Assembly (NCBI GenBank): GCA_037445065.1
Contig: JBBILD010000003.1
Location: 128,001-192,000 of the forward strand
Length of the DNA stretch: 64,000 nucleotides
Direction: 5' to 3'
DNA from: Myxococcales bacterium
GTDB lineage: Bacteria; Desulfobacterota; Binatia; HRBIN30
Under the pieces are notes generated by a model. It saw only the letters and a program-made list of their open reading frames with translations. It did not search any database and was not told the DNA's origin. This document shows positions 2,847 through 32,538 of this stretch, one piece after another. A program made the position numbers and the translations under genes. The first letter of the stretch is position 1. Each line of letters starts with the position of its first letter.

Positions 2847-3378
2847 TTCCAAGAGCCAGCGGAAAGCCAACCAACACTGCCCAAACGCCAGGCCACTACT
2901 TCGTGTGAGTACGGGCCCAATCGCACGGCGCCCGGCCCGGTGTGGTGCACAGTGGGAAGAAGCAGGAAGTTGCATCAATCGTAGTGTGCCGCGACTTGGG
3001 GATAGGAGGCAAGTGGGAGAGGGCGGAAGTGCCAAGGGCGGAGGTGGCCTCCTCCGGCCGCTTTTCGCCGCGGGCCGCCGCGTGTTCCCGCTGCAAAGTG
3101 GGCCGTCCTGATCCAATTGGTTCGAGGGAGAGGGACTCGAATCCTTCCGGGTGTGTGTCTGAGCCATCTCGTGCAGGTGCGCCGCGGAGTCGAGTCCCGT
3201 GGTGGAGCGACCTCGATGGCGAGTGGCCATACCGGCGGCTGGTTAGTTCCGGGAGATGATTCCCGGTGAGCGAAGAGAGGTAGCGATGCGGGTAAACTCC
3301 AGGCACGCGACCTCGGTTGGAGCGGAAGTCGGGGATCACAGGGTGATGCCCGCTGGTGGCGACACCCGTGGCGTCAGC

Positions 3379-5040
3379 TCAGCTTGCGGGGTTGCTGGAG
3401 CAGTCCTGCGCGTTGGGCTTCGGATCTCGAAGGCCGCGGTTCCTTGCCGGAGCGGCGCAGCCCTTTCGCAGCAATTCAACTGCATGCTGCGCCTCCGGCG
3501 CAACCACGGCGATCAGTCGGGTGTTTGCCCGCAAGCGGCTCGTCGCAGTCGGCACCCATTCACGCTTCCCGTCCGAGCAACGGGCGAGAATGCAACCAGG
3601 TGGCAGGCCGAGAGAACGAACCTCTTGTCCGACAAACGGTGCCCCCGGTTCGATGAGAAACTCCACCACGAAGGGCTCGGTGGCCCCCAGAGCTACGCCC
3701 CGAGCGCGTAACTCGCGCTCGAGCAGAGCCTCGTAGATGGGTAGCTCGCGAAAGCCTTCTGCAACGACGTACGCAAAAAAGCAGCTCACGAGAAGCGGAA
3801 GGATTTGGTCGTAATTCCCGGTCATTTCCACAATCAACACGATGCCCGTCAACGGGGCGCGTACGACAGCCGCGAAATAGGCGGCCATTCCAACGACACC
3901 AAAGAGTGCCGGGATGGGTGCCGCGAAGGGAACCATCCTGTGAGCCACATGTCCCACGGTCAGGCCGAGCAGTGCTCCGAGTAGGAGCAAGGGGGCAAAA
4001 ATGCCCCCTGGGACTCCCGTGCCGTAACTGAGCATGGTCAGAACAAAGCGAAGGAAGAATAGCGCCACGATGCTGCTTCCGAGCAGCTCACCCCGCAAGC
4101 TGCGCTCGATTAGGGTCTGTCCGCTACCAGGCAACTCTGGCCAGAGCCATGCCAAGACGCCGATACTACCGCCAACCAGAGCTGCGGCAGCCACGCGCCG
4201 GCGACCAGGGAAACTGTCGAAGCAATCGAGGGTCGCCAGCAAGCAACGATTGAAGAACCAGCCGCCAAGCCCGGCGACAATGCCGAGCACAGCAAAAATC
4301 CCAAGAGCCGACAGTGGCGGCGCCGGGTAGGCTGGTACGGCAAACACGGGAAAGGGGCCGAATCCTACTCGCGCCACGACGTCGCCCACGATGGAAGCAA
4401 CAAATGCGGCGCCGAACACGATCGGCTGGAAGTCACGCCGCACCTCTTCCAACACGAAAATTAGACCGGCGAGTGGCGTATTGAACGCTGCAGCCAACCC
4501 AGCCCCGGCTCCTGCCGCGATGAGAGTGAGACGCTCTTGCTCGGAAACACTGAGCCACCGTGATACAGCATCACCGGCAGCACCGCCCATCTGTACAGTG
4601 GGCCCCTCGCGGCCCAACGCCAAGCCTGCGCCGATCGCTAGAGCGCCTCCAGCGAACTTGACGGGGATAAGCCGCCGCCAGTTGAGGTTGCGGAGGCGGT
4701 GAAATACTGCTTTCAAGTGAGGAATCCCGCTCCCCGCTGCTTCGGGTGCGTAGCGGGTGAGCACGGCCGCAGCGAACGCTCCGAGCGCTCCCCAAGCGCA
4801 GGGCCAGAGCCAACCCCACACGGGAGTGTGCTGGGCCCAGCGCACCAGCTCGTTGCGGAGGATCTCCGCTCCACCCACCGCTGCTCGGAAGAGCAAAGCG
4901 ATCGTCCCGGCCACCAGGCCCACCAGCGCGGCGCGGGGAAAAACCTGTCGGCGTTGTTGCTGTACCAGGAGAAAGTCTTCGAGCTCGGAACGCAGCCGTT
5001 CGTCTCCAGCCCCAGCCTCGCCTGTAGTGCGTTCGCTCAT
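3379..5040 (-). CDS. clcA: ClC-family H+/Cl- exchange transporter with C-terminal TrkA-C (RCK_C) domain
   Basis: Motifs GSGIP, GREGP (gating Glu), FVLEE, GIFAP and PIY. C-terminal GAPFVGQEVRSLGLPPG. Confidence 0.9.
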   Translation of the reverse strand: MSERTTGEAGAGDERLRSELEDFLLVQQQRRQVFPRAALVGLVAGTIALLFRAAVGGAEILRNELVRWAQHTPVWGWLWPCAWGALGAFAAAVLTRYAPEAAGSGIPHLKAVFHRLRNLNWRRLIPVKFAGGALAIGAGLALGREGPTVQMGGAAGDAVSRWLSVSEQERLTLIAAGAGAGLAAAFNTPLAGLIFVLEEVRRDFQPIVFGAAFVASIVGDVVARVGFGPFPVFAVPAYPAPPLSALGIFAVLGIVAGLGGWFFNRCLLATLDCFDSFPGRRRVAAAALVGGSIGVLAWLWPELPGSGQTLIERSLRGELLGSSIVALFFLRFVLTMLSYGTGVPGGIFAPLLLLGALLGLTVGHVAHRMVPFAAPIPALFGVVGMAAYFAAVVRAPLTGIVLIVEMTGNYDQILPLLVSCFFAYVVAEGFRELPIYEALLERELRARGVALGATEPFVVEFLIEPGAPFVGQEVRSLGLPPGCILARCSDGKREWVPTATSRLRANTRLIAVVAPEAQHAVELLRKGCAAPARNRGLRDPKPNAQDCSSNPAS

Positions 5041-24139: not shown

Positions 24140-24254
24140 GGTTTCCTGACGGGACCGGCCGAGACGTGGGATGCCCGAAAACCGCTGGGGCGCCCGAGCG
24201 GGCGATGGCGTTTGCGGCGCATCCCTCCGTTTCGCATGCCGGTCGTCAGGAACC
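24140..24254. other. Extended rod-like inverted-repeat structure (candidate structured RNA or miniature element)
   Basis: Nested helices TTCCTGACG/CGTCAGGAA, ACCGGC/GCCGGT, CGAGACG/CGTTTCG, GGGATGC/GCATCCC and CGCCC/GGGCG. Confidence 0.5.
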
Positions 24255-24439
24255 GAGAGGCTAGATACGCAGGGTTGCGAGGGGTTCCACGAGCGCGGCG
24301 TTTGCTGTGCCCCAAAGCCCCAATTTTTCTTCTCTGGCTGCTTGCCTCGCTCGGCCGCTACGCGGTAGGCGCAGCCCGAGCTGCTGAGCGGAAGGGGGGC
24401 GCGAAGCGAGCGCGCGGAACTCGCGGAAGGAGCGTCACA

Positions 24440-26812
24440 ATGGCTCGTCAGGGGCAAGTGGAGCGAAAGATCGGGCTGGGAGGGCTTTGCGTCATTGCTG
24501 CGATGTTCGTGGCGCAACTTGGCGTCCACTCGGCGGGGGCAATCCAATGTAGCGGCGGAGAGACCGACGGATTTTCTTGCGACGATGGCAATCCCTGCAC
24601 GGTGGGCGACGTGTGCTGGAACCAGCAGTGCCAACCGGGCTCTGTTGCCACAGGCAACGCGTGTGACGATGGAGACGTATGTACGATCGGTGAGAGCTGC
24701 CAGTCGGACGGTTCGTGCGGTGGGGGAAGCATCAACGGTGCGTGCGGTTGCTGCGAGTTCACCAGTAATACGGGGGGCGGTGAGTTCGGAACTTGCACCT
24801 CGCCGGTGACCGAGGAGGATTGCGAGCAGGAGCTAGGAGGGTTCTTTGAACAAGGGGGCATTTGCAATACGCAGTCAGGCGTTTGCCAGGCTGGCGGCGA
24901 GTGTGGGAACGGGCAGGTGGAGGGGTTCGAACAGTGCGACGACGGCAACCAAGAAAGTGGCGACTGCTGCGACGCGAGCTGCCAGTTCGAATCGCAAGGC
25001 GCAGCCTGCAAGGATGGCAACCCATGCACACTCAACGATTCTTGCGACGGGTCTGGCATTTGCACCGGGGGCAGTGCAAACCCGCAGTGTGGTTGCTGCG
25101 AGTTCGGTCTCCTTTCGAGCGTCTTCGATTCGTCAGCGCGGACGCTCGAGGGCGCCTGCGAGGCCCCGGTGGAGGAACAGTCTTGCCGCGATTCGCTGGG
25201 GGAGTTCTTCCAGGGGGCGAGTTGCAATCTGGAACTCGGCACGTGTGAATTAGCCGCGGTTTGCGGCAACGGGACGGTCGAGATCGGTGAACAGTGCGAC
25301 GACGGAAACCTGGAGAACGGAGATTGTTGCGACTCCTCCTGCCAGTTTGAGGAGCTGGAAAGCCCTTGCAGCGACGGAAATGCTTGCACCGACGAGGACT
25401 ATTGCAACGGCGAAGGGACCTGCGTCTCTGGCGTTCCCGTAAGCTGCAACGATTCCAACGAGTGCACGACGGACGTGTGCGATCCGCAGCAGGGGTGTAC
25501 CTTTACTCCGAATAACGATCCGTGCGACGACGGGAATGCGTGTACGTTCGATGATACCTGCTCCGACGGCCAGTGCATTGGCACGCTGGTCTCCTGCCAG
25601 CCGCCGGTCCCGCCGTGCGAGTCCGGCGAGTTTTGCAACCCGAGCAGCGGCTTGTGTGAAGCTCTACCTGACGCGCCCACCACGGTTCCATGCGAACTGG
25701 ACCAGAACGTCTGCACGGTAGACCGCTGTGATGGCAACGGTTCGTGTCAGTTCGTGGAAAACGCCGAGGCTGGCACGCCGTGCGACGACGGATTGTTCTG
25801 TAACGGCCTGGGCGACACATGCGACGGATCGGGTCAATGCCAGCATCCGGGGGACCCCTGCTCGGGTGGGAGCGAGTGCAGCCGGACTTGCAATGAGGCG
25901 GCGGACAACTGCTTTGACCCGGTTGGAACGCCGTGCAGCGAGGATGGGTTGGTGTGCACGGCGGATCAATGCGACGGGTCGGGGATCTGTGGCCACACGC
26001 AGGTGCCGGTGAGCCAATGCCCGAAGGGCTACGTGATCTTGGAGGCGCCTGCATCGGCAACAGTCAATGCGGAAGTTGCCTACACCTCACAGGTCAAGGG
26101 CGGTTCGGCATGCGCGGAAAACGTACGGCTCCGACAGGCGTCGCTGCTGGATGGAAACGCGATCGGGCCGAGTGGCGTGAGGGTCGGAAAGGATGCTGTG
26201 GCAAGCGGCATGTGTGTCACTGCCGGTGCGAGCGTGATTCTTGGCGTGAACGCGCAGTGTCTGGCGGGTACCGACACGAGTGGCACGCATACGTTGCTAA
26301 GCGATTGTTCAGGCGCATCGGACTTGGCGGAACAGCGGAGGCAGATGCTGCTCGCTCTGAGTGCGGATCAGAGTTTGGGGTCGGTCACCGTTGGAACGAG
26401 TGCCACGCATGACATCACTCCGTTCAGCACGGCACCTGGTGACGTGGTGGTGATTGACTACGATTCGCTTACGATCAAACCGAACCGTACCCTCACGATC
26501 AAAGGGAACGCGAACACGGCGGCGGTGGTCATTCGCATCTCAGGGAATCTGCGCGTACGCCTGAACGGGAAGATCGTTACGCAGGGCATCCCCGCAGGCC
26601 CGGGGGGATCTCCGGCTGAGCGCGTGCTGTTTTTGGTAGGGGGAACGGCGGAGCTTCGGCGGATTGCGGAGGTGCAGGGCACGATTTTCTCCCAAGGTAC
26701 GCTCACCGTCCGCCGGGACGCGCAGGTGACCGGTGCGCTGGTCAGCGCTGCTTCGCCCTTGCGGGTGCGACCATCGGTGGAAGTCGTCCACGCGCCGTGG
26801 GTACTGTGGTAG
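24440..26812 (+). CDS. Large secreted cysteine-rich repeat protein (myxococcal Cys-rich/DUF4215-like and CDDGNxCT repeats) with a C-terminal beta-rich domain
   Basis: SD GGAAGGAG, signal peptide, CGNGxVExxEQCDDGNxxxGDCC twice, many CDDGNxCT units and a Cys-poor C-terminus. Confidence 0.85.
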   Translation: MARQGQVERKIGLGGLCVIAAMFVAQLGVHSAGAIQCSGGETDGFSCDDGNPCTVGDVCWNQQCQPGSVATGNACDDGDVCTIGESCQSDGSCGGGSINGACGCCEFTSNTGGGEFGTCTSPVTEEDCEQELGGFFEQGGICNTQSGVCQAGGECGNGQVEGFEQCDDGNQESGDCCDASCQFESQGAACKDGNPCTLNDSCDGSGICTGGSANPQCGCCEFGLLSSVFDSSARTLEGACEAPVEEQSCRDSLGEFFQGASCNLELGTCELAAVCGNGTVEIGEQCDDGNLENGDCCDSSCQFEELESPCSDGNACTDEDYCNGEGTCVSGVPVSCNDSNECTTDVCDPQQGCTFTPNNDPCDDGNACTFDDTCSDGQCIGTLVSCQPPVPPCESGEFCNPSSGLCEALPDAPTTVPCELDQNVCTVDRCDGNGSCQFVENAEAGTPCDDGLFCNGLGDTCDGSGQCQHPGDPCSGGSECSRTCNEAADNCFDPVGTPCSEDGLVCTADQCDGSGICGHTQVPVSQCPKGYVILEAPASATVNAEVAYTSQVKGGSACAENVRLRQASLLDGNAIGPSGVRVGKDAVASGMCVTAGASVILGVNAQCLAGTDTSGTHTLLSDCSGASDLAEQRRQMLLALSADQSLGSVTVGTSATHDITPFSTAPGDVVVIDYDSLTIKPNRTLTIKGNANTAAVVIRISGNLRVRLNGKIVTQGIPAGPGGSPAERVLFLVGGTAELRRIAEVQGTIFSQGTLTVRRDAQVTGALVSAASPLRVRPSVEVVHAPWVLW

Positions 26813-26854
26813 CCGTCGCTCACCAGCGCCCGCGCGCAGGTGCATTCGGTAGCA

Positions 26855-26899
26855 GCGGCCTACCCCTCATGAGCTAGGGGTAGGCCGCCTTTGCTTTCC
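26855..26899 (+). terminator. Intrinsic terminator-like hairpin
   Basis: 13-bp stem GCGGCCTACCCCT/AGGGGTAGGCCGC followed by CTTTGCTTT. Confidence 0.7.
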
Positions 26900-27564
26900 G
26901 AAGTAAGCGGCCGAAGTGAATGGGACAGAAATTGGCTGTAGCTTCGGACCGAAGCTTCTCCTCCAATTAGGCCGCCAAAGCCTCATTTGGAGTGGTGGGC
27001 CTGCGCGATTGTCGCCCTTTGGAGATCTCATGGTCTCTAAGCCCGAGCGAGGGCGTACTTCAGCGAGAGACTGCGTAGACCACTGTGAGTTGCCGCGTGG
27101 CAGTGGCCCGAGCTGTCCTCACCGTTTTTAGGTGAGAGCCAACTCGGGGGACACCGGTTCTCACGGTGACGGTTGTTAAAGCGGGGTCGCGGCTGCCAGG
27201 ATCCACGAGAGGCAGGGTGCGCTTTTCGGCTGCCGCGAGTTCGGACGTTGTGGCTGGTTTGCTCGCTGCAATTCGTATCGAAGTTCGACCGTCGCGTTGG
27301 CGTTCCGCTTGTCGGGCCAGTAACAGCAGGCGCCAAAGACCGTGCATCGGCCCGGCAGAAATCCTGAAGAGCAGAGCGATACAACAACGAAGGAGAGCGC
27401 CGTCGGAAGCCCGATCTCTCCAAACGCGGGACGGTGCGAGCAAGGCGTCGAGGCCACTGCGATGGGGGCCACATTGTAAAGGGCTGTGCCGGAAAAGAGG
27501 GCCGTGGGTTAGGCGGAGCTGGCGGGGCTGAGGAGGGAGGGAAAAGAAGAAAGATCCCGATGTG

Positions 27565-27593
27565 GTGAAAATGATTATCAAAATCGTTACAGA
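27565..27593 (+). promoter_or_regulatory. Fur box overlapping the predicted promoter of the heme-uptake operon
   Basis: GAAAATGATTATCAAAATC (27567-27585) matches 15/19 to GATAATGATAATCATTATC (16/19 on the reverse strand). It lies inside GTGAAA-N17-TACAGA. Confidence 0.8.
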
Positions 27594-27762
27594 CCAGCTC
27601 CGATGGGCCACGAGAGGAGAAGAAAGAGAAGTTGGGGCTCGGTAATCGCATTTCGGGGAGGACAGCTACGTCGAAGCCGATTGCGGCGATTGCGCTCGGA
27701 GGCCGGTGCCCGGTGCGCGTGAGGTGGGCGGCTGTGTCGCCAACAGCGGTTGGGATTGAACG

Positions 27763-27975
27763 ATGAGCGAGGCATCGAGTGGGAAGCGTGATCCTGCTTT
27801 CGTTGGCGGGCCGGGGGATGTCCGTTGTTGCTGCGGCAGTTTGCTTGCTCGGCTGCTGAAGGATGGAGTCGAGCTCAAGTGCCGCCGATGCAAGCGCATT
27901 GTGTTTCTGGATTTCAGAGGAGAGCTCGTTGTGAAGGAGCGTTCACCGCCGGACAGAGGCGTTTCTTCGACTTGA
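27763..27975 (+). CDS. Mu Com-like zinc-ribbon protein (70 aa)
   Basis: DVRCCCGSLLARLLKDGVELKCRRCKR matches the Com-family pattern RCxxCxxLL...ExKCxRC. Confidence 0.72.
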   Translation: MSEASSGKRDPAFVGGPGDVRCCCGSLLARLLKDGVELKCRRCKRIVFLDFRGELVVKERSPPDRGVSST

Positions 27976-27992
27976 CTTTGTTTCCGCGGCCC

Positions 27993-28057
27993 GAGGTCAC
28001 GAACCCAGAGCCCACGTGATTTTCTGACTTTGACAACACATTTGGAGGGTTCGATGA
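27993..28057 (+). promoter_or_regulatory. Putative two-state translational RNA switch (tandem GARNNCA motifs, anti-SD helix)
   Basis: GAGGTCA-c-GAACCCA-GAGCCCA. TCACGAACCC (27997-28006) pairs with GGGTTCG-A-TGA (28047-28057). The alternative hairpin is GAGGTCACG/CGTGATTTT. Confidence 0.5.
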
Positions 28058-29205
28058 GAGTTCGGAAAAGACCGTTCGTACTAAGTTTGTGGGCTGTGAC
28101 TGTGATGCTTCTCGCGCCACAAGCGGAGACGCGCGCAGACACTCTGGTGATCGACGATCAAACCCCGGGCACGGTATATGATGCGATCTTGGATGGTTAC
28201 CCTGGGTTTTTCACCCAGGACGGAATGCCGGACGCTGGCAACAACAATTTGGCGGTTGCCTTGAAGGCTGGCGCTACTGAGTTGCGCAGCATCGCCGAGT
28301 TTCCTCTTTCTCCGCTAGCAGGCCGGACCTCAGCGGATGTCTTGTCGGCGAAGTTGCGTTTTAATGTGGACGACGTTTTGGGGTTTCTGGGTGCACCGCT
28401 CAGCGGCTGCGCGCCTGAGAATATCGCGGTGTGGGTACGGGCTGGTGACGGTGCGATTCCTCTTTCCGACTTCATCGTAACGGGCCCGCCTACCGCTGTA
28501 GTGAACACGGGCCTGAGTTGCTCAATCACCGATACGACCCTGGGCAGCACGGGTCCTGTGATCTTTGAGGTCACGGTGACCTCCGCCTTGAAGGACCTCC
28601 TGGAGGCAAATGCGCAGTTCGCCAATGTTGTCTGGGCAACGAACTCTGACAACACAGGTGCCTCGATGGACGACTTGGGGCTGGACAGTTCTGGGCCTCC
28701 TGGGGTTCGCGGTGCCCGCATGCCCTATCTGGTCATTGAGTTAGCGGAACTGCCTCCCCCCTCGCTGGATGCGAAGACCCGGCGGTGCCAGCGGACTGTG
28801 ACAACACACGCTCTAAGCTTAGAGAGTCTTGTGCAGCGGCAGCTCGCTGCGTGCAGCGATCGTGTGCTCAACGACTCCGCTGCCGGGAAACCGCTGACGA
28901 AGGCAACGGATTTCTGCGCTGCGCGCTTGTCGTGGATACCCGTTGACAATTCGCGAGTGTGGAAATGGCGCGGCGCGGCGGAGGCGGCGATCCGCAAGGC
29001 GTGTGCTCCGCCGGTCGTGCTGACCGATTTAGGCCCGCCTTGTGATCAAAATATCGTGGATGAAACTGCGCTGGCGACCTGCGTTTTGGACCAGGCACTG
29101 CAAAGTGCTCAGAGAACGTTCCGCCGCTCTAACGCGCTGATTTGTCGTACCTTGACGGCAGTGGGGCTGAACCTCCAGTACCCAAACGCTTGCTCGCTGA
29201 ACTGA
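28054..29205 (+). CDS. Secreted protein of unknown function: N-terminal beta-sandwich-like domain plus Cys-linked helical C-terminal domain
   Basis: SD GGAGG and signal peptide (ends TRA-D). N-domain is paralogous to the next gene. Confidence 0.85.
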   Translation: MRVRKRPFVLSLWAVTVMLLAPQAETRADTLVIDDQTPGTVYDAILDGYPGFFTQDGMPDAGNNNLAVALKAGATELRSIAEFPLSPLAGRTSADVLSAKLRFNVDDVLGFLGAPLSGCAPENIAVWVRAGDGAIPLSDFIVTGPPTAVVNTGLSCSITDTTLGSTGPVIFEVTVTSALKDLLEANAQFANVVWATNSDNTGASMDDLGLDSSGPPGVRGARMPYLVIELAELPPPSLDAKTRRCQRTVTTHALSLESLVQRQLAACSDRVLNDSAAGKPLTKATDFCAARLSWIPVDNSRVWKWRGAAEAAIRKACAPPVVLTDLGPPCDQNIVDETALATCVLDQALQSAQRTFRRSNALICRTLTAVGLNLQYPNACSLN

Positions 29206-29284
29206 GTGAGCGCGTGCCGTCAGCCCCGGGGCCGTGTCGTGAGTGCGGCGGCACAGCCCCGGCTCCCTGATCCGGAGGTCAGAG

Positions 29285-30271
29285 ATGAGAGGAAGTTTCG
29301 CCTTGGTTCTTGGGTTGTTGGTAACGGCAGTTTCGCACTCCGTCCATGGGGAAGCAGTGCGCATTGGCGAATCCGATGGTGCGTTGTATGATGGAATCTT
29401 TGACGGGTACCCTGGCATAGCGTTGTTCGACGGAACCCCTGATCTGACGAACAACCCCCCCTCCGTGGCGCTCAAATTTGGGGTGCTGGAAATGCGAACG
29501 GTAGCGGAGTTCCCGTTACCTGCAGTAGCCGGAAAACGCCTCAGCGGCGCCGACCGAGTCGTACTTCACTTCAACATCGACGATGTAATTCCCACGTTCG
29601 GGCCGGGCGCGGAATTCTCTGGACGAGCGGCAAGCACAATTCTTGTGCACCCGTATTGCGGCGACGGAGCCACTGCTCTCGATGACTCCCTACAGGTCGG
29701 CGCTGCTGCGTTCGAAGTGGATACTACACCCTTCGGAGTCATCACAGACGAGACCCTCGCTCGATCCGGTCCGCTGTTTTTTGAACTCGACGTCACCGAG
29801 GCGGTGGTTGATCTCTTGGCCGAAGGCTGCGCGTGGCTCGGATTTGTTTTTCGGACCACGACGAACAACACGGCGACTTCGATTGATGACCTCGGGGACG
29901 GAGGCAGCTACGGCGGCACAAAAGGAGCTGGGGGAGCCAGTCTACCCTCTTTGGAGTGGTTTTTCTCGGCGGAAGCGCCGCCAACTCTAACCACTACAGT
30001 GGAGCCTGTCGCCAGCCCGACACTCAGCCCTACGCCGACAGCGCGCAGCGAGGGACCGAGCGAAACACCGACAACAACGCCGGCGTGCGCCGGTGACTGC
30101 AACGGCGACTCGGCAGTGACGATCGACGAGGTGTTAGTTCTTGTTCGGATTGCCCTCGGCCTTGGGAGCCCAGACTCGTGCGTTGCTGGGGACCTCGATC
30201 GGAGCGCCGATATCACCGTCGACGAGATCATCGTGGCCGTGACTGCAGCGCTTTTGGGTTGCCAACCGTGA
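29285..30271 (+). CDS. Secreted paralog with Pro/Thr linker and dockerin-like C-terminal domain
   Basis: SD GGAGG, signal peptide, PT-rich linker, CAGDCNGDSAVTIDEV...GDLDRSADITVDEI...GC. Confidence 0.85.
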   Translation: MRGSFALVLGLLVTAVSHSVHGEAVRIGESDGALYDGIFDGYPGIALFDGTPDLTNNPPSVALKFGVLEMRTVAEFPLPAVAGKRLSGADRVVLHFNIDDVIPTFGPGAEFSGRAASTILVHPYCGDGATALDDSLQVGAAAFEVDTTPFGVITDETLARSGPLFFELDVTEAVVDLLAEGCAWLGFVFRTTTNNTATSIDDLGDGGSYGGTKGAGGASLPSLEWFFSAEAPPTLTTTVEPVASPTLSPTPTARSEGPSETPTTTPACAGDCNGDSAVTIDEVLVLVRIALGLGSPDSCVAGDLDRSADITVDEIIVAVTAALLGCQP

Positions 30272-32538
30272 CGGGGACGTTTCGTCGTGTTGGCTGGGAA
30301 TTCGCTCCGCGGGTGTTGCCGGTGTTGTTGCTGTGGTTTGTGCACAGCCGCGAGGCCATTGGTGACCCGCAGCTCCGGCGAGAGTCGTATGTGTTGGAGG
30401 AAATCGTCGTGCAAGACGAAGCGGCAGCAGTTGAGGTGTCCCGCTCCGTGCTTCCGGCGCAGGAAATCACCCGGGACACCCTGGAGACGACGTCGGTAGT
30501 GGATCCGGAAGACGCGCTCGAGTTCGTGCCAGACTTGTACATTCGCCGAAACGAACCCTTTCGCCTAGGCGCGAGTACGGTTCGCTTGCAGGGTGCCGAC
30601 CCGAACAAGACGGCCGTCCTCATCAATGGCAAGCGGATGCTTGGTGGGGTGGATGGCGTGGTAGACTTGAGAGACATCCCCGCCGTACTGCTCGACCGGG
30701 TTGAGCTGCACCGTGGTGTAGCGGGAGGGTTTGTGGATAGCGAGGCCATGGCGGGCAGCATCAACATCGTGACCCGCACCCCCAAGGAGCAGCCTGAGTG
30801 GACAGCCACCGCGGCAGGGGGCTCGTTCGACCGCATATTCGCCGGCGCTTCGCACTCGTACCGATGGCGCGGGCTCGCATACCTGGTGGCTTACGAACAC
30901 GATGAACTCGCGCTCGCTCGGCAGTTCGGAGCGATCAGCCGCCAGTTCGAAGGTTCCGGATCGGATGCCAAACAGACGCGAGACAACGTCTTCTTGCATG
31001 CGGCTTTCGATGCGACTGACCGACACCAAATTTCGAGCACGATCCATTTTCTGCCAGTGCGGGAAGGACCGCTCAGTCGCCGCCTCAATGTGACTACGGA
31101 TGTGGGCTGGAGAGGGCGCTTCCCCGGACCCACGGAGGTGCACTTGTCGGCTGGCCGCTTTGGGTTTGATCGGAGGAACGATCTGGCTGGATTCGAAGAA
31201 GACGTTGCCTTCGAGCAGTGGTTCGGGGAGGCCCGCGCGGCGCTGGCGCCGTGGATCGTTTTGGATTCGCATCACAGCATCGAGGCGGCCTACCGCTTCC
31301 GGCTCCCCAGTTTGCGACTCGCTGCCGGGGGACTTCGCGAGGCGGCGACTTCGCTCGCTTCGCCTCCCGGAGTGGCGGAGAGTACCAGCCTTCAGAGTTG
31401 TGCACTGCGTTATGATTGGTCGGACTTGGGGCAGTGGTCGGCGAGTGCAGGAACCAACTTCGATTTGCATTCCTTGTTCGGACTCGAGGTCAATCCAAGG
31501 GCCGTGGTCACCTTTCGCCCGACCGATCGGTTCCGGCTCAGTGTGGGAGTTGGGCGGGGATTTCGCGCTCCGGATTTACTGCAGTTATTCGACGCGGATT
31601 TGAACAACGCAGTGCCTGTAGGGAATCGTCCTATCGGTTACGCGATTCTCGGCGACCGCACCCTGCGGCCAGAAATCGATTTAGCAACCAATGTGGACTT
31701 GACTTGGTGGCCGGCCTCTTGGTTACGGGTACAATCGAACCTATTCCGCCACGATTTTCGCGACTTAATCGATGTCGTTTTGCGGTGTACAGGTCCCCAA
31801 CAGTGCGCCGCCGGCTTCACGCATCCGTTCCCCACGCTGGTCGGACAAGTGTTCCAGTACGCCAACGTGTCCGAGGCAGAGAGCGCTGGTGCTGACCTCT
31901 CTTTGGAAATCTCTTGGAGCGCCTTTGGACGAAACGGTCGGCCGCCGCTGACGGGCAGTTTCGGCCTCAATTACGGGTACCTGTATTCACGGAATGACTC
32001 CGAGCGGCCCGGGGAGAAGGGGAAGGAGCTGCCGTTTCGACCTCCGCACCGTTTCATTCCAAGCTTGTTCGTTCGCGATGAAGGAAGCGGTGCGAGCGGG
32101 CGCTTTTGGGCGGAGTACGACGACCGAGTGTTCACGGACCTTGTTAACAGTGCAACTGGCATTGCTCGCGCTCATTGGATCCTGAACGCTCGGTTCGAAT
32201 GGTCGCCCAGTCCTTGGTTCGAGGTTGGCCACGCCAACGGATTGAAGTCGCTGCTGGCTAACTCGAGCGTATTTTTGGAGGGGAGCAATTTGCTGGACAC
32301 CGAGTTCGGAGCCCCGGTCCGCTCACGCGAATGGCGGGTAGACGTAGCCTCTTGTTCGGGATCCGCACACAACGATGACGTTTCGACTCGGTCGCCCATT
32401 GCCGTTTGTGCCCGTGTCCGTCCTGACCCACGCGTTGGCCTTGCTATGGCTGAGCAGAGTTGGGTTCGTAACTTTGCAGGCCTACGAGGACCCCATTCGC
32501 GTCATCATCGTCGCGGGAGGTACGCATCGAGAGCCTGA
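30268..32538 (+). CDS. TonB-dependent receptor (probable heme/iron receptor) with an apparent frameshift near the 3' end; natural stop probably at 32378
   Basis: TonB box EEIVV, plug VLING...RVELHRG...GSINIVT, GFRAP. GTGA overlap with the upstream stop. Confidence 0.88.
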   Translation: MTGTFRRVGWEFAPRVLPVLLLWFVHSREAIGDPQLRRESYVLEEIVVQDEAAAVEVSRSVLPAQEITRDTLETTSVVDPEDALEFVPDLYIRRNEPFRLGASTVRLQGADPNKTAVLINGKRMLGGVDGVVDLRDIPAVLLDRVELHRGVAGGFVDSEAMAGSINIVTRTPKEQPEWTATAAGGSFDRIFAGASHSYRWRGLAYLVAYEHDELALARQFGAISRQFEGSGSDAKQTRDNVFLHAAFDATDRHQISSTIHFLPVREGPLSRRLNVTTDVGWRGRFPGPTEVHLSAGRFGFDRRNDLAGFEEDVAFEQWFGEARAALAPWIVLDSHHSIEAAYRFRLPSLRLAAGGLREAATSLASPPGVAESTSLQSCALRYDWSDLGQWSASAGTNFDLHSLFGLEVNPRAVVTFRPTDRFRLSVGVGRGFRAPDLLQLFDADLNNAVPVGNRPIGYAILGDRTLRPEIDLATNVDLTWWPASWLRVQSNLFRHDFRDLIDVVLRCTGPQQCAAGFTHPFPTLVGQVFQYANVSEAESAGADLSLEISWSAFGRNGRPPLTGSFGLNYGYLYSRNDSERPGEKGKELPFRPPHRFIPSLFVRDEGSGASGRFWAEYDDRVFTDLVNSATGIARAHWILNARFEWSPSPWFEVGHANGLKSLLANSSVFLEGSNLLDTEFGAPVRSREWRVDVASCSGSAHNDDVSTRSPIAVCARVRPDPRVGLAMAEQSWVRNFAGLRGPHSRHHRRGRYASRA

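Follow-up and report, generated by a model that had tools for sequence, protein, structure and literature searches.

How is the first gene of an outer-membrane uptake operon controlled when its ribosome-binding site lies just behind the gene for a small zinc-ribbon protein resembling the Com regulator of phage Mu? We examine this question in a 64,000-nt stretch of a Binatia genome (hereafter, the window). A preliminary description of the locus had reported three near-tandem heptamers and two mutually exclusive RNA helices over the Shine-Dalgarno sequence (SD) and start codon of the next gene, and had proposed the leader as the target of the Com-like protein. We find that the heptamers belong to a longer, four-unit element, and comparison across genomes supports its being a conserved sequence tied to Com-like genes. 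The element pairs with the ribosome site in the predicted fold of the window's leader and runs into an intrinsic terminator in many relatives. From co-location and homology we infer that the Com-like protein binds the element and that binding activates the genes behind it, which makes the leader a candidate target of the protein.

Background

The report on Mu Com (PMC6483171) prints a SELEX core of GAG(N)2CC in a bipartite arrangement, which confirms the motif given in the preliminary description, and describes a Mu site with several GAG(N)2CC motifs, in partial overlap with the structure that inhibits translation. A second report (PMC3299994) places Com homologs of Mu-like prophages ahead of DNA methyltransferase genes. 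Full-text searches of the literature outside subscription journals returned no description of the Com-like family or of the element treated here.

Organization of the locus

The Com-like gene (27763..27975, + strand; 70 aa, stop TGA at 27973-27975) and the first putatively regulated gene (28054..29205, + strand; a 383-aa secreted protein without a Pfam family) lie on the same strand, separated by a 78-nt leader between stop and ATG. A terminator and promoter scan between the two genes found no match to either in this leader. The SD of the second gene, GGAGG, occupies 28044-28048 and its ATG 28054-28056 (28044..28056 together, + strand); this stretch belongs to GGAGGGTTYNATG, which is kept in two orthologous leaders. 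Behind the 383-aa gene follow its paralog (29243-30271), a TonB-dependent receptor (30178-32538) and then TonB, a periplasmic binding protein, a FecCD permease and an ABC ATPase, to about 35976.

On the upstream side, a strong terminator-like hairpin (26855..26888, + strand; 13-bp stem with 10 G-C pairs, then a T-rich tail) closes the preceding gene and is the 5' limit of the Com-like transcription unit. The roughly 870 nt from this hairpin to the Com-like ATG (26889-27762) have no convincing ORF, only long, spurious-looking ones on both strands, and do not resemble the two orthologous loci at the nucleotide level. Further upstream, 24212-26812 encodes an 866-aa cysteine-rich secreted protein with DUF4215 and Dictyostelium-type repeats and an ice-binding-like C-terminal domain.

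A probable chromosomal relative of Mu Com

The upstream protein contains the four-cysteine stretch ...RCCCGSLLARLLKDGVELKCRRCKR..., and its Cys22, Cys24, Cys40 and Cys43 are invariant in a family whose 25-residue core, RC.CGSLLAR...GVELKCRRCKR, is nearly invariant across phyla. Homologs number 875 proteins at E ≤ 1e-3, some labeled “phage FluMu protein Com” by JGI, and family members are recorded from Myxococcota, Binatia, Methylomirabilota, Acidobacteriota, Nitrospirota and Thermodesulfobacteriota. The AlphaFold (AF2) model is a confident beta-ribbon over residues 20-52, with pLDDT of 80-90 over residues 20-50, low values at both ends and disordered tails; together with the cysteine pattern, it reproduces the N-terminal CCCC zinc finger and disordered C-terminal tail typical of Com.

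Profile comparison agrees with the preliminary description in calling this ORF Com-like. In hhalign, a 23-member profile matches Mu Com (NC_000929) with 91.8% probability and E 7e-7, a value for a single comparison, over 32 columns. The PHROG family gpCom (“control of modification”) gives weak matches in 23/23 members, with a best E of 1e-4 and 0.038 for the window's protein, and 19/23 also match a PHROG “translational regulator.” In BLASTP, the stretch aligned to Mu Com spans only 16 residues, and the first zinc knuckle is CxC in the family versus CxxC in Mu Com. The Pfam family PF10122 (Zn_ribbon_Com) matches 0/23 members at E ≤ 10, while Mu Com itself scores 2.7e-9; across Pfam and NCBIfam, neither the window's protein nor 22 relatives have any match, a Com family included. 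PDB sequence searches with the Com-like protein and with Mu Com returned no relevant structure, and a Foldseek search with the AF2 model gave 0 matches at E ≤ 0.001.

We regard the family as chromosomal rather than phage-borne: 2.9 million viral contigs contain 0 relatives, and a tblastn search of 50,697 phage records returned no match below E 0.2 and none to Mu-like phages. Going by these sequence comparisons, we read the protein as a distant, chromosomal relative of Mu Com.

A conserved four-unit element follows Com-like genes

The heptamers GAGGTCA (27993-27999), GAACCCA (28001-28007) and GAGCCCA (28008-28014), like the SD and ATG, lie where the preliminary description placed them. It had overlooked a preceding unit, GCGGCCC at 27986; since the element begins there, the three heptamers are its units 2-4, with a single C between units 2 and 3. 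The complete element (27986..28014, + strand), a candidate mRNA site for the Com-like protein, starts 11 nt past the Com-like stop. Across 59 distinct instances from several phyla, metagenome copies included, the consensus is G M G G C C M G M G G Y C (N2-3) G M R C C C M G M G C C C, a form partly set by the collecting regexes, which fix parts of units 1, 2 and 4 and leave unit 3 and the first letter free. Units read GAG or GCG, NN, C, with a second C in some only, and unit 1 stands 21-22 nt from unit 4 in 46/59 instances. Unit 3 is GAACC in about half of the instances and GAGCC or GCGTC in the other half. The tandem repeats exceed chance, though not in the form “GARNNCA” under which they had been described; conservation favors the consensus above over that form.

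The 3.79-Mb genome has a single copy of the element: a tight regex has 1 match, and nhmmer finds one element match in the window's genome (E = 0.007) ahead of the next at E = 3.1. It is unchanged across the contigs of three related strains. Compared with two orthologous loci, G020 and G008 (same family, same gene order), the element and the core of the Com-like gene are the only blocks conserved at the nucleotide level, and the leaders of these two share just GGCCCGMGGTCMMGAACCCAGMGCCC and GGAGGGTTYNATG with the window. No further close ortholog emerged when 401 genomes of the class were searched with the downstream protein, only G008 and G020 exceeding 60% identity.

As for structure, units 1-2 are able to form a 4-bp hairpin, GGCC(CGA)GGUC (27988-27998), which RNAalifold predicts in all three orthologs and which is possible in about 50/59 instances, without covariation. 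Beyond it, RNAalifold predicts no conserved structure within the element itself. In instances whose units 2 and 3 stand apart, the insert is a self-contained hairpin. A search of Rfam 15 with the window's 26500-29500 and 7 related loci found no match over the element at E ≤ 1.

To place the element in other genomes, we scanned one genome per species (274 genomes with a Com-like relative) and fetched 80 loci; after dropping duplicates and the loci of one unpublished genome, 90 distinct Com-like ORFs remained. The element lies within 260 nt after the stop in 49/90 of these, 3 of the 49 being doubtful regex matches in coding sequence, and at least 5 further ORFs have it about 1 kb downstream, past one or two small ORFs. 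All 58 nhmmer element matches in the loci are on the Com strand. Com-like genes elsewhere occupy different neighborhoods, yet the same kind of sequence follows them. In published genomes of the order, the Com-like ORF is directly upstream in 11/11 orthologous operons, and the element is present in 10/11 and degenerate in the eleventh (L093); the raw ortholog tallies, like that of the 401-genome search, also count one unpublished genome, which was left out of the analysis. Co-transcription with the putative target gene is probable, the two lying on one strand in conserved order, with no terminator or promoter match between them.

Starting from the motif instead, a metagenome scan with a 16-base pattern returned 80 loci, comprising about 16 true instances and about 64 chance matches. 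Among the true instances, a Com-like ORF immediately precedes the element in at least 11 and is missing from 3, while contig ends truncate the other 2; these 80 loci included no additional leader of the window's type. A loose IUPAC version of the pattern, applied to 41 relatives, gave counts close to the reversed control and was swamped by background.

Predicted pairing with the ribosome-binding site

The first of the two helices in the preliminary description, termed OFF, does exist in the predicted fold. Its core consists of 7 Watson-Crick pairs between CGAACCC inside unit 3 (28000..28006, + strand) and GGGUUCG (28047..28053, + strand), which covers the last two G's of the SD and the spacer between SD and AUG; a bulged A28054 and 3 more pairs (27997-27999/28055-28057) follow. 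The helix belongs to the minimum free energy (MFE) fold of 27976-28075, with core pair probabilities of 0.98-0.99 and -11.2 kcal/mol for the helix alone, and the same fold pairs SD residues G28044 and G28045 with C28013 and C28012 of unit 4.

Locally, the helix is conserved. In an alignment of the window, G008 and G020 it is paired in 28/30 cells (93%, compared with 23-63% when the partners are slid by 1-3 columns), and RNAalifold independently predicts the seven core pairs. One pair, C28000:G28053, changes to A:U, and another goes from G-C to G-U. The repeats and the OFF pairing are kept in two orthologs; the compensation itself is weak, with 3 sequences and 1 compensatory pair, equaled by 158/500 shuffles.

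Judged alone, the anti-SD pairing is not beyond chance in a G+C-rich genome, because many control regions do as well. Against 2113 translation-initiation regions of the same genome, crudely called, the 29-nt element forms a contiguous helix of at least 7 bp with 17% and reaches an equal or better duplex energy with 55%. The whole leader folds no better than shuffles (z = +0.26; 118/200 shuffles fold at least as well). Over 38 leaders, the longest helix between element and initiation region is no longer than in controls (median control fraction 0.72), and duplexfold of the element with the downstream 130 nt against shuffles is too noisy to use (mean z -0.77; 7/49 with p ≤ 0.05). An automatic “SD-pairing” class, 24/42 non-terminator instances with at least 6 bp, is not evidence either, given that the control-region test shows no general enrichment. 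With respect to a Com-type target, the window has a predicted helix spanning SD to AUG that is unexceptional against controls, and units that match GAG(N)2CC in part.

Within the ortholog group, 8/10 leaders tested have a helix of at least 7 bp joining the element and the SD region, each of a length that 10-24% of control regions attain as well. Lineages differ in whether unit 2, 3 or 4 pairs with the SD, which may reflect re-invention or chance. When the element is blocked in silico, the probability that SD to AUG is unpaired goes from 0.32 to 0.66 in the window, and it increases in 8/9 orthologous leaders too; this calculation illustrates the model and does not count as evidence.

The second helix, termed ON, fares differently. 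The complementarity between 27993-28001 and 28015-28023 (+ strand; 3' arm CGUGAUUUU) amounts to 9 pairs, 3 of them G-U, at -7.3 kcal/mol, and since both helices use 27997-28001 they are mutually exclusive, as had been proposed. Of the two competing folds expected for 27976-28075, OFF dominates the ensemble and ON has a probability of 0.00; enforcing it costs 8.2 kcal/mol (-16.5 versus -24.7). In the three orthologs 15/27 cells are paired, a figure that slid controls (26-41%) reach once the 9 pairs of the window itself are added, and 6/9 pairs are broken in at least one ortholog, the helix being broken in both orthologs of the window. The contigs of three related strains carry G28016C, which breaks C28000:G28016 with nothing compensating, next to an unchanged element and OFF 3' arm; it is the one leader variant among the related-strain DNA contigs. 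As a functional second RNA state, the ON helix is unsupported, and an “ON” state is more simply the protein-bound state.

Overlap with intrinsic terminators in relatives

In 22 distinct sequences, the last unit of the element runs into a canonical intrinsic terminator as the 5' base of its stem. The stem base AGCCCGG/CCGGGCU is invariant in all 22, the upper stem varies and includes G-U pairs, and a U-run follows; a stricter automatic rule recovers 17 terminators among the 59 instances. This arrangement, which resembles antitermination systems in that a candidate site overlaps the 5' arm of a terminator, is absent from the window's leader.

The next start codon lies 18-60 nt past the stem in 13/16 instances with a predicted start. 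Such a gap leaves little room for a promoter, and downstream expression must therefore depend on read-through. The invariant stem base, the G-U pairs of the upper stem and the self-contained inserts between units 2 and 3 argue for action on RNA of the same strand. They further suggest competition for the element between its binding factor and the base of the terminator stem. We take the overlap to point to one shared mechanism, in which protein binding would free the ribosome site here and prevent termination elsewhere.

A probable Fur-controlled uptake operon

A Fur-box-like site (27567..27585, assigned to neither strand) lies 178 nt upstream of the Com-like ATG and has 16/19 matches to the E. 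coli Fur-box consensus, the one used for scoring. It is the sole site within 3 mismatches in 64 kb, and 0/100 shuffles contain one; it sits in an AT-rich island in a region of otherwise 60% G+C. Boxes with at most 5 mismatches occur upstream of 42/87 Com-like genes versus 9/87 downstream control regions of equal length, and such sites precede many Com-like genes in other phyla. The site is a probable iron-responsive operator of the operon. Because of this box, the terminator upstream and the uptake genes downstream, the unit looks like a Fur-controlled operon headed by a small regulator.

A phage, prophage or DNA-modification context is absent, the neighbors being TonB, FecCD and ABC uptake genes. 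At other loci, the gene behind the element encodes a porin-like protein, a TonB-dependent receptor, ExbB, a multicopper oxidase, a PLP-dependent decarboxylase or a secreted protein assigned to no family.

Proposed mechanism and alternatives

We give a probability of roughly 0.5 to the reading in which the Com-like protein binds the tandem units on its own mRNA, freeing the ribosome site here and preventing termination elsewhere. In the free transcript, CGAACCC of unit 3 would pair with GGGUUCG between SD and AUG, and the CC of unit 4 with the first two G's of the SD, so that the ribosome-binding site of the first uptake-operon gene would be closed. The Com-like protein, made from the same transcript, would bind the tandem GMGNYC units as a single strand or small hairpin, compete with the OFF helix and open the ribosome site, like Mu Com on mom. 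In other lineages, where the element ends in AGAGCCCGG, the 5' base of an intrinsic terminator, binding would block termination. Fur probably governs transcription of the entire unit, which would make the Com-like protein a second, post-transcriptional tier of an iron-starvation response.

The protein might instead bind the element for another purpose, namely mRNA stabilization or processing, autoregulation through the 3' UTR, or repression, with the anti-SD helix incidental. The statistically unexceptional OFF helix agrees with this; an element 11 nt after the stop is equally part of the 3' UTR of the Com-like gene, and the hairpins of the terminator class could simply end the Com-like transcript. 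The last point is at odds with the start codons 18-60 nt past 13/16 terminators, which make read-through necessary, the first with the retention of the OFF helix through a compensatory change, and repression with the activating role of Mu Com (PMC6483171). On balance we hold this explanation to be rather unlikely.

Quite unlikely is a reading in which an sRNA, a small ligand or a different protein recognizes the element and the Com-like gene is only a co-regulated neighbor. About 33/80 Com-like loci have no element within 200 nt, which would fit such a neighbor, as would three metagenome copies (L113, L134 and L187; element at about 441-480) that have no Com-like ORF in the 450 nt upstream. 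These three are true copies with a terminator or SD pairing, and copies away from the gene also fit targets acted on in trans, which they may be. Further, the element has no Rfam family at E ≤ 1 and no conserved fold beyond the 4-bp hairpin; it is conserved in sequence, like a protein site, and very strongly co-located with Com-like genes of its own strand.

TonB-dependent systems are often under ECF sigma factors, and the GAAC of unit 3, read as an ECF-sigma -35 in the half of instances with GAACC, would make the element an operator or promoter working as DNA. The other half, with GAGCC or GCGTC at this position, does not fit, nor does the lack, in the leaders read, of a conserved -10 at constant spacing; scanning for sigma-70 promoters gave no match, strand-specificity is strict, and G-U pairs in the stems are meaningful for RNA of this strand alone. 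We consider a DNA site very unlikely. An E. coli sigma-E-like GAACCC-N16-TCTGA in the window was rejected, since neither of the two orthologs conserves it.

A self-contained RNA switch between ON (27993-28001/28015-28023) and OFF (27997-28006/28047-28057) is hardly credible: the shared 27997-28001 does make the two helices exclusive, but ON has a probability of 0.00 at +8.2 kcal/mol, 15/27 paired ortholog cells and the uncompensated G28016C.

Returning to binding by the Com-like protein, we regard as unlikely the further idea that its four cysteines make it a metal sensor, in which the bound metal (Zn, Fe or none) decides on GMGNYC binding. If true, a Fur promoter plus a metal-dependent RNA-binder would amount to a two-tier iron-starvation switch, a bacterial counterpart of IRP/IRE, in which the terminator or the ribosome site of genes for outer-membrane uptake is gated, in at least 5 phyla.

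Relation to known regulatory systems

The putative arrangement resembles Com/mom of Mu in three respects: a small CCCC zinc-finger gene lies just upstream of its (putative) target on what is probably one transcript, the protein cores align over 32 columns, and tandem GAG-NN-C(C) motifs stand beside or overlap a helix, here a predicted one, hiding the start region (PMC6483171). It differs in others. The family here is chromosomal, with a CxC first knuckle and no PF10122 match; there are four units at a fixed spacing of 7-8 nt, whereas Mu has two motifs in hairpin loops; the Com-like gene is separated from its target by a leader, without overlap; TonB-dependent uptake proteins or porins lie downstream in place of the DNA-modification enzyme of Mu; and in many relatives the controlled structure would be a terminator. 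The Com homologs of prophages (PMC3299994) are likewise Com-type regulators coupled to genes other than mom; unlike the family here, they sit in prophages, and the gene under their control is again one for DNA modification.

The placement at terminators also recalls a second group of regulators. Protein-mediated antitermination or attenuation at terminator arms is exerted by BglG, SacY and LicT at RAT sites, by HutP and by TRAP, which binds GAG/UAG repeats. As in these systems, the candidate site overlaps the terminator 5' arm (in the 22 relatives), and as with TRAP and HutP it is built of short tandem repeats. The zinc ribbon is an unrelated fold, however, the window's leader has no terminator, and what we propose is sequestration of the 5' arm rather than stabilization of an antiterminator hairpin. 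RyhB-type sRNAs, in turn, are second-tier regulators under Fur. They share with the Com-like gene the layout of a small regulator gene behind a Fur-box-like site that would act post-transcriptionally in the iron response; the regulator here is a protein instead of an sRNA and would work in cis, within its own operon, presumably as an activator of uptake genes.

Within the Com/mom kind of control, the system stands out as chromosomal, as tied to uptake operons that look iron-regulated, and as putatively re-used for antitermination. Com has so far been treated as a peculiarity of Mu-like phages, and our data indicate a large chromosomal family (875 proteins, 274 species genomes) many of whose members pair with a short, highly conserved RNA element wired to a ribosome site or a terminator. 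If the binding is true, it would define a new class of cis-acting protein/RNA switch for iron and outer-membrane uptake regulons of little-studied environmental bacteria, and one recognition module would be re-used naturally for translational control and antitermination. It would also offer a compact regulatory part, with a protein of about 35 residues and a site of about 30 nt.

Additional features of Com-like loci

Several loci have further genes around the Com-like gene. Directly 5' of it, L003, L004 and L005 encode a conserved membrane protein without a Pfam family, which has about 4 TM segments in about 190 aa, terminates in ...EMWFR and precedes the Com-like gene in several loci. At L035, L052, L054, L063 and L074 (about 3200-4300; Binatia and Methylomirabilota), the order is Com-like gene, one or two small ORFs without a Pfam family, element and terminator; the small ORFs may encode companion proteins. 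L053 (3001-5700) has two Com-like genes with an element after each, plus a third element copy, and L079 (3160-3270) has two tandem element copies ahead of a PLP-dependent decarboxylase gene.

The two secreted proteins of the window (28054-29205 and 29243-30271), both without a Pfam family, are tandem paralogs with a common N-terminal motif, ...IDDQTPGT.YDAILDGYPGF.... Similar genes occur in 24/401 genomes of the class, a count that takes in the window's own and one unpublished genome, and where seen they are mostly in tandem and mostly behind a Com-like gene.
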